This document shows, in pieces, positions 716-62,181 of a DNA stretch of 64,000 nucleotides. Both the position numbers and the translations under genes were made by a program. The stretch is taken from NCBI GenBank assembly GCA_963750035.1, contig CAVVPE010000003.1:308600-372599 (forward strand). The letters run 5' to 3'. The notes under the pieces are model-generated. The model ran no database searches and was not told the origin of the DNA. It saw nothing but the letters and a program-made list of their open reading frames with translations. Positions within the stretch are counted from its first letter, which is position 1, and each line of letters opens with the position of its first letter. The stretch comes from an uncultured Acidobacteriota bacterium. Its GTDB lineage: Bacteria > Acidobacteriota > Vicinamibacteria > Vicinamibacterales > CAVVIG01.

Positions 716-810
716 GACTCGGGGCTCGGGACTGGGGACTCGGGCTCGGCCCTTAGGCCTGCCTCGAAGCTTTTCGAGCCCCGAGCGCCCGAGCCCCGAA
801 TCCCGAAACG
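716..810. repeat. tandem-word hairpin (words CTCGGGG/ACTGGGG with reverse complement), likely terminator of the 816-1076 gene
   Basis: Left arm 716-749 gactcggggctcgggactggggactcgggctcgg. Right arm 779-810 ccccgagcgcccgagccccgaatcccga. Inner palindrome ctcgaagcttttcgag. Confidence 0.8.
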
Positions 811-815
811 AATTC

Positions 816-1076
816 CTAGATCGTCTGACGCCTGCCGACCATCATCCGGTAGATCCACAGCAGCAGCACCGCCCCGATCAGCGACATCAGGAACCCGGCA
901 CCGTCGTTCTCGCCGTACCAGCCCAGGGCGCGGCCGATGAAACCTCCGAGCAGCGCGCCGGCGATGCCGAGCGCCATCGTCACGATGATGCCGCCGGGAT
1001 CGCGGCCAGGCATGAGGAGCTTGGCAAGAGCCCCGACGATCAGGCCGAAGATGATCCACCCGATCACGCCAAACAT
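816..1076 (-). CDS. GlsB/YeaQ/YmgE family (transglycosylase-associated) small membrane protein
   Basis: 86 aa, MFGVIGWIIFGLIVGALAKLLMPGRDPGGIIVTMALGIAGALLGGFIG. Typical glycine-rich three-TM pattern of this family. Confidence 0.85.
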   Translation of the reverse strand: MFGVIGWIIFGLIVGALAKLLMPGRDPGGIIVTMALGIAGALLGGFIGRALGWYGENDGAGFLMSLIGAVLLLWIYRMMVGRRQTI

Positions 1077-1227
1077 AGCGGTACCCTCCGTGAGCGCCTG
1101 AGTGCAAATGCGGCGACGTCAGCGGTTCAGCCGGGCCGGTGCTCTGAAGCCCAGGCATTGAGGTCCGCGAAAGGAACGGAACCGATGCCCCGGTCGTCCC
1201 TAGTTTAGGAAAATCGATGCGCTTTCG

Positions 1228-1755
1228 GGCTGAGGATTTTGTAGTTCGACCCCGGGACGGGCGAAGTTCATCGCGGCGGGTCGATCACCCGCCTCGAGCC
1301 GCAGCCGGCCGCCCTGCTTGCGCTGCTGATGTCCCGGCCGGGTGAGCTGGTCACACGCCAGGAGGCCATTCGTGCCCTTTGGGGTGATCACACCAGCGTG
1401 AGTTTTCAGGACGGCCTCAACTACAGCGTTCGACAGATTCGGATTGCGACTGAACGACGAGGTCCGGCGGCCGCGGTACGTCGAAACGATCCCACGCCGC
1501 GGATACCGGTTCGTCGCGACCGTCGACGGCCTATCGGCGCCCGCGGACCGATCACGAAGTCTGCCGGGGCGGCCCGCCCGGAGATGGATGGCCGCTGCGC
1601 TGTGCGGTGTCCTGCTCGCCGCCGCGACCGTCGTGATCGAGCGGCGTCCGAACCGGCACCACGAGATCGCGAGTCACGATCCTCAGATCGATTCACGACC
1701 GCCTTTTCTAACCTCAGCACCCGGCACCCAGGCACCCCCGAGCACCGGGCGTTAG
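1228..1755 (+). CDS. CadC/OmpR-type winged-helix DNA-binding protein with a TM segment, frameshifted
   Basis: Pieces in three frames: FDPGTGEVHRGGSITRLEPQPAALLALLMSRPGELVTRQEAIRALWG...LNYSVRQIR / LNDEVRRPRYVETIPRRGYRFVA, then the hydrophobic stretch WMAAALCGVLLAAATVVI. Confidence 0.6.
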
Positions 1756-1862
1756 TCCTCAGGTTTTCCTCAGCGATTCCCAAGAACTCGACGCGGCAAG
1801 GTCCGTCACCCCGGACAGGAGGTGACTGATGCTCGACAAACCCTGGCTCGCTGCCGGATTCG

Positions 1863-58547: not shown

Positions 58548-59513
58548 ATAGACGCAATCAAACGCATCACCGTTCCCGAAGAAGGCATCGAGACGCTGTT
58601 TGGCTCCTACGACGAGAACCTGAAGCACCTCGAGTCGCTGTTCAACGTCCGCATCCGCACCCAAGGCCACGAGCTCCTCGTGGACGGCGACACCCCAGGC
58701 CCTGAGAATGTCGATCGCGTGGTGGGACAGCTGTCGTCGCTCATGCGGGACGGCTACAAGTTGTCGAACGCCGACGTGAAGACCGCCTCCGACCTGGTGG
58801 CCCAGGACCAGTCCGTCGATCTGCGGGAGCACTTCCTCAAGGGCAGCCTGACGCCGGCCGGCAAGCGCCGGGTCGCGCCGAAGACGATCAACCAGCGGCG
58901 GTACCTCGACGCGATCGACGCGAACGACATCGTGTTCGGCATCGGTCCCGCCGGGACGGGGAAGACCTATCTCGCCATGGCCCAGGCCGTCTCTTTCCTG
59001 GTCGCGAAGAAGGTCAGCCGCATCATCCTCGCGCGCCCGGCGGTGGAGGCCGGCGAGAAGCTCGGGTTCCTGCCGGGCGACCTCCAGGAAAAGGTCAATC
59101 CGTATCTACGGCCGTTGTACGACGCGCTCTACGACATGCTCGACGTCGAGCGGGTGGCCCGCTATATCGAGCGCGGGACGATCGAGATTGCGCCGATTGC
59201 CTTCATGCGCGGCCGGACGCTCAACGATTCGTTCGTCATCCTCGACGAAGCCCAGAACACGACGTCCGAGCAGATGAAGATGTTCCTGACGCGACTGGGG
59301 TTCGGCGCGAAGGCGGTGATTACCGGGGACGTGACGCAGATCGACTTGCCGATCGGCCGGGTCTCGGGTCTCGTCGAGGCGATGAAGGTGGTGAGCGCCA
59401 TCGAGGGCATCTCGTTCATCTATTTCGACGATCGCGACGTGGTCCGCCACAAGCTCGTGCAGCAGATCGTCAAAGCGTACGAGGCGTTCACCAACGGGAA
59501 CGGCCGGTCATAG
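58548..59513 (+). CDS. phoH: PhoH-family ATPase, start uncertain
   Basis: [15 protein letters not shown] (Walker A), [19 protein letters not shown]. The ORF track begins at 58680, but the in-frame sequence [26 protein letters not shown] upstream has no canonical start codon. Confidence 0.88.
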
Positions 59514-59520
59514 AATCGCC

Positions 59521-60015
59521 ATGCGACGGATGGCTGCCGGCGCGAGCCGGACCACGGGGGCGCGCTTGCGCGTGGCGGTGACCGACGGGATGGGGAGGCC
59601 GATCCCGTCCGGTGGCCTGGATCGATGGCTGGCGGATGTCGCGCCGCGCCGCGCGCGCGGGTCGATGACCGTGGCTCTGGTCAGCGACGCCCGCATCCGC
59701 GCGCTCAACCGGCAGTATCGGGGCAAGGACTACGCGACGGACGTGCTCAGCTTCCCGGTCATGGCCGATCCCCTGGAGGGGATCAGGCCCCCCGGAAATC
59801 GCCATCTCGGAGACATCGTTATCGCCCGGGGCATTGCCCGGCGCCAGGCGCGGGCGGCCGGCCACGCCCGCCCGGAAGAGCTTCGAATTCTGGCCTTGCA
59901 CGGCCTCCTCCACCTCTTGGGATACGATCACGAGCGCGACAACGGCCAAATGGCGCGTCTGGAGCAGAGGCTCCGGCGGAAAGGCGGCCTTCGGGAAGCA
60001 TTGACCGAGCGCTGA
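59521..60015 (+). CDS. ybeY: rRNA maturation endoribonuclease YbeY
   Basis: TDVLSFPV, HGLLHLLGYDHERD zinc-binding motif. Confidence 0.9.
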   Translation: MRRMAAGASRTTGARLRVAVTDGMGRPIPSGGLDRWLADVAPRRARGSMTVALVSDARIRALNRQYRGKDYATDVLSFPVMADPLEGIRPPGNRHLGDIVIARGIARRQARAAGHARPEELRILALHGLLHLLGYDHERDNGQMARLEQRLRRKGGLREALTER

Positions 60016-61260
60016 TGATTCCCCTGCTGGTGTTCCTCCTGGCGTGCGCCGCGGTCTACCTCGGCGCCATCGAGGCGGCCTTCAGCGCGCTGATGAGGTT
60101 GTCGCTCCGCCTGGTCGCCGAGCGAAGCGGGCGGCCCGGGCACCTCTCGGCGTACCTCGACGACCCCGTCCTGCTGTTCGCGCCCGTGCGCCTGCTGCTC
60201 GGACTGGTCACGGCGGCAGCCACGGCGCTGCTCGCGATGGCGATCGGCGCCGCCAGCTTCCGCGAGGTGGCGCTCGTGCTGGTGAGCGTCGCGGCGTTCA
60301 TCGTCATCGTGGAGCTGCTGCTGCCGCTGGCCATCGTGGCGCGCGATCCCGAGCGCGTACTGGAAATCCTGCTGCCGACGTTCAACCCGATCGCCCGGAC
60401 GCTGGGGCCGTTCTCGCGCTGGACGGCGCAGATGATGTCCGCGAAGCGGCCGACCGCTGCGACGACGCCGGACGAAGCGGCGGAAGAGGCGAGCGAAGCG
60501 ACCAAGGCCTACCTGACCGCCGGCGAGCAGGAGGGCCTGATCGAGGGCGAGGAGCGCCGGCTGCTCCAGAGCATCGTCGACTTCGGCGACACGCTCGTCC
60601 GTGAAGTGATGACGCCGCGGCCCGACATCGTCGCCATTCCCGAGGCGGCGACGGTCGGCGATCTGCGCGCGCTGTTCCGCGAACAGGAGTATTCGCGGTT
60701 CCCGGTGTTCCGCGAGAGCCTCGACAACATCGCGGGGTTCGTGTTCGTGAAGGATCTGGTCGCGCTGAGCATCGACCGACGACTCGCGGCCGATCACCTC
60801 GCTGCTGCGCCCGGCGGTGATCGTCCCGGAGAGCAAGCGGGTTCCCGAGCTGCTCAAGCAGTTCCAGCGGCAGCAGACGCAAATCGCGATCGTGGTGGAC
60901 GAGTACGGCGGCACCGCCGGCCTCGTGACGATCGAGGATCTGCTCGAGGAGATCGTCGGCGAAATTCGCGACGAGTACGACGTCGAGTCCGAGCCGGTGG
61001 TCGACGAGGGCGGGGGCCGGTTCGTGTTCCACGGCAAGGTGGACATCGACGAGGTGATCCAGCGGCTCGGCGTCCAGATCGAGCGGGAAGGGTTCGAGAC
61101 GGTCGGCGGCTTCCTGATGACGCACCTGGGCCGCGTGCCGGCGGTCGGGGAGCGCGTCGACATCGACGGGCTGACGGTCGAAGTCCTGGAAGTCGACCGG
61201 CGGCGCGTGCACAAGGTGCGGATCCGCCGTGGCGAGGTCCACGCCGGCGGCACGCCATGA
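60015..61260 (+). CDS. CNNM/CorC-type hemolysin-family protein (DUF21, CBS pair, CorC_HlyC), one apparent frameshift near 60790
   Basis: TM-rich N-terminus, [53 protein letters not shown]. Confidence 0.85.
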
Positions 61261-62151
61261 AGTCCGGCTTCGTCTCGTTCATCGGCCGCCCGAATGCCGG
61301 CAAGTCCACGCTCCTGAACCGGCTGGTCGGTTCGAAGCTGGCCATCGTTTCGGACAAGCCCCAGACGACCCGGACTCGGATTCTCGGCGTCCGGAACTAT
61401 CCCGACGCCCAGGTGGTCTTCCTCGACACCCCCGGCATCCACCGGCCGCTGCACCGGATGAACGTCCGGATGGTCGATGCCGCGGTGCAGACGATCAAGG
61501 AAGTCGACGTGCTCGGACTCGTCGTTGACGCGGCCGAGCCGCCGGGCAAAGGCGAGCGATTCGTCGTCGACCTGGTGAAGGACGCCCCGGCACCGGTCTT
61601 CCTCATCCTGAACAAGGTCGACTTGATCAGGAAGCCCCGGCTGCTGCCGATGATCGCGCGGTACCAGGAGGAAGGCGGGTTCGAGGAAATCATTCCGCTG
61701 TCGGCGGCGACCGGCGAGAACGTCGATCGCCTCGAGCGCACGATCATCGATCGGCTGCCGGAAGGGCAGCCGCTGTACCCTGACGACTACCTGACGGACC
61801 AGCCCGAGCGGGTGTTCGCGGCCGAAATCGTCCGCGAGAAGCTGCTTCAGTTCACGCACGCCGAGATCCCGTTCGCGAGCGCCGTGGTGATCGATCGGTT
61901 CGAGGAGCCGGAGGGCGACCGGCCGCTGCTGCGCCTGTACCTGTACGATTGTCGTGGATCGCGACTCGCAAAAGCCGATCGTGATCGGCCGCGGCGGCGA
62001 CATGATCAAGAAGATCGGCACGGCCGCGCGCGAGGAGCTGGAGCGCTTCTTCGGCACGAAGGTGTTCCTCGACCTTCACGTGCGGGTGAAGTCGGAGTGG
62101 CGCGAGGACGAACGGATGCTCGCGGAGCTGGGCATTCGAACTGACAAGTAA
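61257..62151 (+). CDS. era: GTPase Era, one apparent frameshift near 61945
   Basis: [31 protein letters not shown] domain [23 protein letters not shown] in a second frame. Confidence 0.92.
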
Positions 62152-62181
62152 TTTGGAATTTGGAATCAAGAATTAGGAATG
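62148..62181. repeat. single-arm GGAATTT-family word repeat running into the recO start codon
   Basis: gtaatttggaatttggaatcaagaattaggaATG. No inverted partner. Confidence 0.8.

Follow-up and report, generated by a model that had tools for sequence, protein, structure and literature searches.

Spacers in a 64,000-nucleotide stretch of DNA from an uncultured Acidobacteriota bacterium (order Vicinamibacterales; contig CAVVPE010000003.1, positions 308,600 to 372,599 of the forward strand; hereafter the window) carry periodic hairpins, in which a tandem array of a short word, most often 7 nt long, is followed by a loop and by an array of the reverse-complement word. These elements are real, non-random and lineage-enriched periodic quasi-palindromes. 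Comparison with related genomes indicates that they are probably heptanucleotide repeats generated by slippage and template switching, which at the RNA level would form 3' stem-loops resembling those of repetitive extragenic palindromic (REP) sequences and would not be classical terminators. Our confidence in the evolutionary part of this description is good, while in any function it is low.

Periodic hairpins in the noncoding DNA of the window

Frameshifting insertions in the window (described below) make gene calling and annotation based on open reading frames (ORFs) unreliable, so a Viterbi model that allows frame switches was used in its place to divide the window into coding and noncoding parts. 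This segmentation yields ~46 noncoding segments with a total of 8.1 kb, and 56 kb of coding DNA. The 13 hairpins listed in an initial annotation of the sequence exist: all 13 fold into long stems, and Tandem Repeats Finder (TRF) reports paired arrays of period 7, 8, 9 or 14 at their coordinates. Folding energies lie between -21 and -76 kcal/mol at 11 of the 13 loci, and the two AT-rich loci (5117-5149 and 44469-44505) fold more weakly, at -12.7 and -8.3 kcal/mol. Compared with dinucleotide shuffles, RNA z-scores fall between -3 and -9 at 11 of the 12 loci tested; the weakest score, -2.0, belongs to 27056-27136, because its G-rich/C-rich composition folds well regardless.

TRF finds 35 arrays in the noncoding DNA, 18 of them of period 7. 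In 200 dinucleotide shuffles of the same DNA the count is 2.06 +/- 1.5 overall and 0.3 for period 7. The coding DNA, seven times larger, contains three period-7 arrays, and the periods there are multiples of 3. At 12 loci an array with a reverse-complement partner exceeds the 99th percentile of the null, and under a stricter definition of the hairpin there are eight in the window and none in the 200 shuffles, so that the structures survive a null model of matched composition. The periodic hairpins are also the longest inverted repeats of the whole window. An inverted-repeat search reported several pairing registers at 30142, 31135, 50611, 54651 and 8657, in agreement with the earlier suggestion that the arms can pair in more than one register. 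A scan of the window against Rfam at the gathering threshold returned only a tRNA-Ala, and the elements are thus not covered by any known RNA family.

The elements are less pervasive than first described. The initial annotation placed them in nearly every spacer and counted more than 20; a full hairpin is present in 13 of the ~46 noncoding segments (28%) and an array of any kind in ~20 (43%). Six of the loci in that count have unpaired arrays (6955, 20688, 25182, 34875, 49745 and 62150), and in one pair the two arrays lie 430 nt apart (45550/46008). Remaining spacers contain ordinary hairpins (19262, 36805, 37665, 55230) or nothing, and none of the six divergent (head-to-head) spacers of the window carries a periodic hairpin. 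Arms consist of ~3-5 units and form stems of 21-56 bp, in which a mismatch often falls at the degenerate position of the unit; apical loops measure 4 nt to about 63 nt, a wider range than the 10-55 nt first given. Approximately ten different words occur within the 64 kb, and no core is common to the 13 hairpins. A shared architecture is well founded, as had been proposed, while the proposed difference in sequence holds only in part: GGAATTN is used at four loci, GGGCAGGNA, GTTGGAGA and CGTTCGN at two loci each, and neighbouring spacers share words.

Turnover of orthologous spacers

The process that shapes these spacers can be seen in a graded series of relatives. The nearest genomes to the window are metagenome-assembled genomes (MAGs) of Vicinamibacterales, with a pyrG amino-acid identity of 77-88%. 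Six syntenic genomes with 93-78% identity, together with two gene tables, gave twelve comparable spacers; two of the closest contigs, for P0125 and P0135, contributed gene tables and spacer lengths only. BLAST alignments between the window and its relative L204 (92.7% identity) break exactly at the repeat spacers.

In the sucC-sucD operon the 83-nt spacer of the window holds an AACACGA hairpin (41582..41636; 7-nt unit, 21 bp, z -4.7), and the 86-nt spacer of L204 holds a CACGAAG-type hairpin. In L208 the spacer measures 105 nt, and its CACGAAA and CAATYACC arrays are unpaired; L206 has only the 7 nt GACACGA, and L207 and L209 have 17 nt; the GACACGA of L206 matches the words of the arrays in the window, L204 and L208. 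The spacer between the DUF2905 gene and dcd carries a CGTTCGN hairpin in the window (47025..47118; 7 nt, 37 bp, z -4.5) and in L204. In L206 every unit of either arm reads CGTTCTN instead, and in distant relatives this spacer is 2-35 nt long. The longest hairpin of the window (48746..48903) occupies the spacer between a HEAT-repeat gene and the Rieske gene, with 56 bp, arms of ~46 nt and 14-nt super-units of GTTCNNN heptads. This hairpin measures 158 nt; its counterpart in L204 shares the outer arms but has a smaller number of inner units, and L206 has a spacer of 28 nt, which the outer right arm of the 48746 hairpin resembles; lengths of this spacer are 182, 113 or 28-43 nt.

The Rieske-cytb spacer has clean GGATTTNA hairpins in L204, L206 and L207 and a decayed remnant in the window, where an AGATTTG array accompanies a short hairpin (49745..49771). 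Between cytochrome b and the gene for its C-terminal domain, a GGAATTN hairpin (50611..50702, z -7.0) is present in the window and in L204 (~100 nt), and the spacer is 21, 6 or 0 nt elsewhere. Here the filled and empty sites read TAA...TAAT and TAG GAAG, the stem runs into the flanking ancestral bases, and no clear target-site duplication is found. After the multihaem cytochrome gene, the window has a GGGCAGGTA hairpin (54651..54710; 9 nt, 3.6 + 2.8 units, 2 nt after the stop codon, z -3.7), L207 has similar words and L204 and L206 have ~ten GGGCTNA units; a TATAAT follows in all of them, at 54714 directly behind the hairpin of the window. The hairpin after aspS (58432..58507; 7-nt GGGGCTG/GGCTGGG, z -5.0) begins 1 nt past the stop codon and is followed by TGCTATAAT (58513). 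Its place is taken in L204 by GGGACTC/GGGGCTC, the word of window 716-810, and in L206 by a small plain hairpin. The number of units differs between orthologues through internal additions.

A closer view is provided by two independent metagenome contigs of the Joint Genome Institute (JGI), L081 (97.2% identity over 8.45 kb) and L082 (94.8%), both of which contain hairpins 30142 and 31135. Between the window and L081 the spacer of 31135 differs at 16 of 95 positions and that of the CGCAGAG array (34852..34913) at 11 of 71, compared with 5 of 256 in a plain spacer and 2.5% in coding DNA; hairpin 30142 differs at only 3 of 92. Despite 22 differences, the L082 orthologue of 31135 folds into a perfect stem of 31 bp (-47.2 kcal/mol), with each variable unit position mirrored in the other arm. 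In simulations, 24 random substitutions gave -19.2 +/- 4.8 kcal/mol, and the best of 500 trials reached -39.8. A single templated copy of one arm from the other would explain the L082 stem; the L081 copy is no better than random substitution. In L082 (~1410-1425, the orthologue of 30176-30186) the apical loop of hairpin 30142 contains a 6-nt tandem duplication, CGGACC CGGACC, which may be an early step towards a new apical unit.

Taken together, these comparisons show that the elements are dispensable, change faster than their surroundings, evolve in concert within and between arms, and are confined to the unconstrained stretch that separates a stop codon from the start signals of the following gene. 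The initial annotation had proposed an alignment of orthologous spacers to see whether words turn over while the build plan persists, and the outcome is as it predicted.

Occurrence in relatives and other phyla

The same architecture is found in independent assemblies at 97, 95, 93 and 78-82% identity to the window, L204 carrying the hairpins of the 41-58 kb region. Illumina MAGs of the order have the same build plan with other words, including GTTCCGG (9.6 units), GCTGGCA (9 units), GGTGCTTA, GTGCCGAG, CAGTGGT and others. Periodic hairpins occur at 12.5 per 100 kb in the window, 3.3 in Vicinamibacterales relatives, 8.2 in other Acidobacteriota, 1.5 in Planctomycetota and 0.7 in Gemmatimonadota, and a set of 49 loci from other phyla (971 kb) contains none. 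Across 474 kb of acidobacterial loci the dominant period is 7, which accounts for 61 of 168 arrays against 21 of period 8.

A metagenome scan with (GGAATTN)4 matched at least 120 contigs, with a G+C content of 23-69% among the matches listed; among these, the arrays were paired as hairpins in 12 of 32 high-GC contigs and in 3 of 42 low-GC contigs. At L104 1662-1837 the two arms of one hairpin carry different words, GGGAACA in ~12 units and AATTCCC (that is, GGGAATT) in 6, and pair in 5-bp blocks only. As judged from this locus, homogenisation within an arm can outrun complementarity between arms.

Within the window the same word is often used in neighbouring spacers. GGAATTN hairpins flank the kinase gene 30229-31137 (30142-30221 and 31135-31222), and GTTGGAGA occurs in the adjacent rpsB-tsf and pyrH-frr spacers (8657-8750 and 6955-6986), which suggests short-range spread or exchange between nearby arrays.

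Placement relative to genes and promoters

Among 58 hairpins in 553 kb, the distance from stop codon to stem is mostly -8 to +14 nt, and at two hairpins of the window (31135 and 50611) the stop codon TAA lies inside the first repeat unit. Copies are also found inside operons, namely in sucC-sucD, rpsB-tsf, korA-korB and Rieske-cytb-cytbC. Ribosome-binding sites of the next gene (GAGGA, AGGTGA) and TATAAT boxes lie outside the stem; the GAGGA is intact at the gene after the 50611 hairpin, and where the next gene belongs to the same operon, the ribosome-binding site just beyond the stem is also conserved in relatives without the hairpin. A TATAAT box stands immediately behind three hairpins. Of the 26 hairpins for which both flanks are known, three lie between divergent genes, which is near expectation and too few to discriminate.

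TATAAT boxes, often in the form TGCTATAAT, are found 6-9 nt before a GTG or ATG start at 27045-27050 (minus strand), 33316, 42520, 46337, 54714 and 58513. Ahead of kdsA the arrangement TATAAT-N6/7-GTG is present in the window and in five relatives (L001, L006, L007, L008 and L017, downstream of pyrG). Such short distances point to extended -10 promoters in the lineage and to transcripts that have no leader or a very short one.

The hairpins do not resemble Rho-independent terminators, which combine a short GC-rich stem with a U-tract: their stems span 21-56 bp, none of the 13 has a run of T after it in the sense direction, and counting both strands there is one antisense T5 stretch (30142). 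Classical terminator-like sites were not enriched in a consensus scan, with 7 found and 10.6 expected. At the DUF2905-dcd hairpin we observed two compensated pairs among three sequences, in an alignment that is unreliable in periodic sequence.

Comparison with described repeats

The initial annotation knew of no named class that matches these elements. Intergenic heptanucleotide repeats have in fact been described, including inverted pairs, for which no class name was coined. Rehm et al. (2015) reported ~185 GGGAATC-type arrays in two Xanthomonas species (X. campestris and X. axonopodis), typically of 4 units, with 70-75 convergent pairs able to form stem-loops. Those arrays are ~90% intergenic, lie on average 28 nt from the upstream ORF, near or overlapping its stop codon and far from the next gene, and differ in length between sister species while usually keeping their single or paired type. 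Transcripts tend to start or stop there, and the arrays were read as G-quadruplex motifs (PMC4692102). The Xanthomonas inverted GGGAATC pairs are the closest precedent, sharing every structural feature except the single G-rich word. Like them, the acidobacterial elements are convergent, stop-proximal arrays of ~4 degenerate tandem 7-nt units. Unlike them, they belong to the phylum Acidobacteriota, fill whole operon-internal spacers and use about ten words in 64 kb, most of them non-quadruplex, where the Xanthomonas study searched a single G-rich word; four G3 tracts are present in 3 of the 13 hairpins. The evidence for local seeding and for arm-to-arm copying is new relative to that study.

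Long simple sequence repeats, as summaries of Mrazek, Guo and Shah (2007) present them, have units of 5-11 nt with 7 the commonest, and are intergenic, lineage-specific and attributed to polymerase slippage (PMC4679880, PMC4692102). The elements described here have units with 7 nt again the commonest length and in excess of what composition predicts, period-7 arrays concentrated in intergenic DNA and rare in genes, convergent stem-loop pairs and proximity to stop codons. As far as these summaries show, that survey counted direct repeats, and the hairpin of an array plus its complement was not addressed nor Acidobacteria singled out (PMC4679880, PMC4692102). Cyanobacterial short tandemly repeated repetitive (STRR) sequences and the TAACTGA repeats of Beggiatoaceae are likewise intergenic tandem arrays with several heptamer words per genome. 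They are mostly direct repeats, TAACTGA usually lying just upstream of start codons with one inverted set (PMC4679880), whereas the acidobacterial form is typically an inverted pair just past a stop codon. A literature search for heptamer hairpins in Acidobacteria found nothing specific. The elements are best filed within the known intergenic heptanucleotide-repeat phenomenon, which they extend to a further phylum and to many words, with comparative evidence on how such repeats originate and turn over.

With REP sequences, bacterial interspersed mosaic elements (BIMEs) and REPINs the hairpins share the form of extragenic imperfect palindromes at gene 3' ends, also inside operons, and by analogy REP/BIME would be their best functional counterpart. 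REPs are sequence families with a conserved core of 20-40 nt and a GTAG or CGTC end (PMC3733652). The acidobacterial elements, unlike REP/REPIN, lack a common core, their arms are tandem arrays, and their words track local sequence. Template-switch mutagenesis at quasi-palindromes makes imperfect arms identical in one event, as in L082; descriptions of it concern single short inverted repeats and not the generation of a genome-wide class of periodic hairpins (PMC7202029, PMC8604942, PMC5941160). Integron attC sites and CRISPR arrays were also considered and dropped, given the housekeeping operons, the lack of spacer-repeat arrays and the lack of conserved core sites.

Origin and possible role

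In the explanation that we consider probable, replication slippage would amplify a short sequence lying behind a stop codon and ahead of the following ribosome-binding site or promoter, mostly in 7-nt steps, and intrastrand template switching would add an inverted copy of it. Both arms would then keep expanding, contracting and re-copying each other, which leads to fast turnover of word and length while the plan of array, loop and complement is kept. Both ingredients are in the literature, template-switch homogenisation of quasi-palindrome arms as a published mechanism (PMC7202029, PMC8604942) and a slippage bias towards heptanucleotides in Mrazek 2007 as summarised in PMC4679880. From the word matches between arrays and the short spacers of relatives, we infer an origin in place from local sequence by slippage, with template switching supplying the complementary arm.

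In the transcript, a stem-loop of 20-55 bp without a U-tract would begin 0-14 nt past the stop codon. Since such stems lie within operons and are missing in close relatives, they are not efficient or essential terminators, and together with the absent U-tract this leads us to read them as REP/BIME-like 3' stem-loops or as by-products. REP elements stabilise upstream mRNA and attenuate read-through, and RNase III requires a duplex of ~20 bp. Most likely, such a stem-loop at the 3' end would block 3'-5' exonucleases or be cut by RNase III, and would at most attenuate read-through to the next promoter. It may also be that the cell largely tolerates the hairpins as by-products of a mutational bias specific to the lineage.

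Several points weigh against this account. The polarity of gain versus loss is not proven, and the short spacers of L206, L207 and L209 could be deletions that left a remnant of an arm. Re-palindromisation is a single case, seen at one locus in one contig, and in most copies the variable positions of the units are not mirrored between the arms. Some words (GGAATTN, GGGACTC) turn up again at loci that are not related and in numerous metagenome contigs, a recurrence that purely local seeding does not explain and that calls for favoured words or some spread. The preference for 7 nt is left unexplained. Any function at the RNA level is wholly inferred; folding energy shows no preference for the transcribed over the opposite strand (4 of 8) and G-U content likewise gives no signal, so that a positive sign of selection on the RNA is lacking.

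The hairpins could alternatively be the transcription terminators or insulators of this lineage, with a long 'I-shaped' stem that lacks a U-tract, is perhaps aided by a factor, and shields the next promoter. Their position 0-14 nt past stop codons in tandem and convergent spacers, their absence from head-to-head spacers of the window, and the TATAAT directly behind three of them speak for this, as do the lack of enrichment of canonical hairpin-plus-T-run sites, which means that something else must end transcripts, and the finding in Xanthomonas that such repeats coincide with the starts or stops of assembled transcripts more often than control repeats do (PMC4692102). We nevertheless regard it as unlikely, given that the U-tract is absent, that copies lie inside the co-expression operons sucC-sucD, rpsB-tsf and Rieske-cytb-cytbC, that the same spacers measure 0-21 nt in relatives, which makes the element dispensable, and that the share of hairpins between divergent genes over the wider set is not far from expectation. 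Small mobile elements of a REPIN or miniature inverted-repeat transposable element (MITE) kind, one family per word and moved by a RAYT or IS200-type transposase, form a further candidate; REPs spread by RAYT transposases. Word families at unlinked loci fit such spread, as do the extragenic sites near 3' ends, the 120 or more contigs with (GGAATTN)4, the reappearance of the 716-810 word in the L204 aspS spacer, and the outer GTAATT and inner GGAATGCG units common to the four GGAATTN copies (by direct reading). Yet the ends of GGAATTN copies vary between contigs, the filled and empty sites show no clear target-site duplication, the sucC-sucD and HEAT-Rieske words agree with what relatives have in the corresponding spacers, internal additions change the number of units from one orthologue to the next, and all units change in concert. 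Moreover, ~ten words in 64 kb would require many transposases, and none was found among the window proteins scanned, a minority of ORFs; mobility seems rather improbable.

A reader of the 7-nt phased units, at the DNA level or as a protein (a cold-shock-type protein, a nucleoid protein, or gyrase as at BIMEs), would account for the strict preference for 7 nt, for the equal stability of the transcribed and opposite strands, and for the coexistence of unpaired arrays with hairpins. CspB binds heptamer repeats with one protein per unit, as cited in PMC4679880. Since the words are too diverse for sequence-specific recognition, the elements are dispensable between close relatives and the data contain no sign of binding, such a reader is very unlikely. 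G-quadruplex or i-motif formation, which has been proposed for heptamer repeats of Xanthomonas and Nostoc, is compatible with four or more G3 tracts at 716-810, 27056-27136 and 54651-54710, and with the G-rich arm coming first in 9 of 11 hairpins (direct reading). It is contradicted as a general explanation and has hardly any probability as such, as 10 of the 13 hairpins, including those built from GGAATTN, AACACGA, CGTTCGN, GTTGGAGA and the 14-nt words, have no G3 quadruplex potential on either strand and the complementary arm would compete for pairing; for the three G-rich words it could still apply. An artefact of assembly or sequencing might be suspected in so error-prone a sequence, with its nine single-base insertions and its split korA and aspS. 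This reading is refuted, because the same hairpins are carried by the independent JGI contigs at 97% and 95% and by L204 at 93%, and the same architecture by many MEGAHIT or SPAdes assemblies. The presence in independently assembled contigs for which the initial annotation called is thereby confirmed.

More speculatively, and with little probability in our judgement, the hairpins might constitute a sequence-free class selected for structure, in which a lineage-specific bias or dedicated activity regenerates hairpins after stop codons as renewable, register-shifting 3'-end modules. Candidates would be a step of the replisome or of repair that advances by 7 nt at a time, or else a factor able to recognise duplexes phased at 7 nt, and the modules would serve as insulators or RNase III sites that decouple cistrons. 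If this were true, the heptad period would be functional and not a by-product, and it would explain the excess of heptanucleotides long noted in several phyla.

Since 2007 heptanucleotide repeats have been known to be over-represented in some bacterial genomes, and for this excess no cause or function is generally accepted. The sole detailed study of heptamers read the repeats as G-quadruplexes, and the window contains many non-quadruplex words built on the same plan, which shifts the question away from what the sequence binds. The graded relatives display the process itself, with gain or loss at fixed positions, concerted change of units and one-step re-palindromisation, and the sucC-sucD, HEAT-Rieske and cytb spacers are concrete loci with and without the element among close relatives. 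Repeat spacers also break alignments, can be mistaken for mobile elements or terminators, and matter to operon and terminator prediction in Acidobacteriota.

Gene content and sequence quality of the window

The window has a G+C content of 66% and a housekeeping gene content, which includes pyrG, kds genes, lapB, pilQ, rpsB-tsf-pyrH, sdhCAB, sucCD, korAB, ndk, dcd, a Rieske/cytochrome b cluster, hisS, aspS and era. In 8.4 kb compared with the 97%-identical L081, genes of the window contain nine extra single bases, all of them insertions in the window (31570, 33209, 34246, 34389, 34499, 34724, 34851, 35334 and 35729). Both korA (42574-44464) and aspS (56349-58430) are split over two frames, where relatives have single ORFs of 629 and ~600 aa. 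These changes look like the indel errors of long-read assembly.

Further repeat loci

The remaining periodic hairpins are the following. A CTCGGGG/GACTCGG hairpin (716..810; 7 nt, ~5 + 3.4 units, z -5.1) starts 5 nt past the stop codon of a minus-strand Transgly_assoc gene (816-1076). The rpsB-tsf spacer holds a GTTGGAGA hairpin (8657..8750; 8 nt, 4.1 + 3.8 units, 36 bp, z -8.2) beside the rpsB stop codon (8766, minus strand), and a 9-nt GGGCAGGNA hairpin (27056..27136) lies 4 nt after the stop codon of pyrG (27140, minus strand) and is followed by TATAAT and the kdsA start. Two GGAATTN hairpins surround the kinase gene. The one at 30142..30221 (7 nt, 5.1 + 5.1 units, 33 bp, z -9.1) extends from 5 nt past a stop codon (30136) to 8 nt ahead of this diacylglycerol-kinase-family gene, whose start is at 30229, and that at 31135..31222 (4.4 + 4.6 units, z -7.5) lies in the spacer where the kinase gene and serA converge.

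Unpaired arrays include AACTCTCC (6955..6986), which is the reverse complement of the 8657 word and lies directly after the pyrH stop codon (6988, minus strand), AATCTGA (20688..20719; 7 nt, 4.4 units), and GTCGTTC (25182..25204; 7 nt, 3.3 units), which belongs to the word family of 47025 and follows a stop codon at 25218 (minus strand). The icd-mdh spacer carries the unpaired array CGCAGAG(G) (34852..34913), with 7/8-nt units and a 15-nt super-unit, and GGAATTN recurs in 4.4 unpaired units (62150..62180) between a stop codon at 62144 and a start at 62179. A 10-nt direct repeat, ACCAAAGGAC, in 2.2-2.5 copies adjoins an ordinary hairpin in a convergent spacer (23306-23333) and falls outside the heptad class.

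Two small AT-rich palindromic arrays differ from the rest. One has a 14-nt unit, AAATTTACAATTGT, and lies 23 nt after the pfk stop codon at 5094 (5117..5149, z -5.05), and the other is in the korA-korB spacer (44469..44505, z -3.1). Both contain the perfect 14-nt palindrome TTGTAAATTTACAA, at 5127-5140 and 44480-44493, for which the expected count is 0.08 even with three mismatches allowed; no exact copy occurs in 209 fetched loci. These two hairpins may be operator-like protein-binding sites outside the repeat class.

In contrast to the volatile repeat spacers, the repeat-free and promoter-like dcd-HEAT spacer (47692-47783 in the window, 9910-10000 in L204) is near-identical between these two and recognisable in all relatives. 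It keeps a TTGAC...GTAGTAAAACTTGC core in six genomes (the window, L204 and the equivalents in L206-L209), and is probably a conserved promoter or 5' leader.

A small minus-strand gene, frameshifted in the window, is bracketed by inverted heptamer arrays (45550-46038): TTGCAGA (45550..45579; 7 nt, 4.3 units), just past the korB stop codon, and its inverted partner 430 nt away, an AATCTGC-like array (46008..46038). The N-terminus of its product has 67% identity to a PF05635 '23S rRNA intervening sequence protein' of L206. The corresponding regions are L206 7822-8217, L207 7897-8295, L208 8193-8636 and L204 8019-8339. BLAST matches the inverted arrays around it in L206 and L207 as well, and in its place in L204 inverted arrays of another word, GAGTTNNN, surround ~240 nt. 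The arrangement recalls rRNA intervening sequences, in which a long stem encloses such an ORF.

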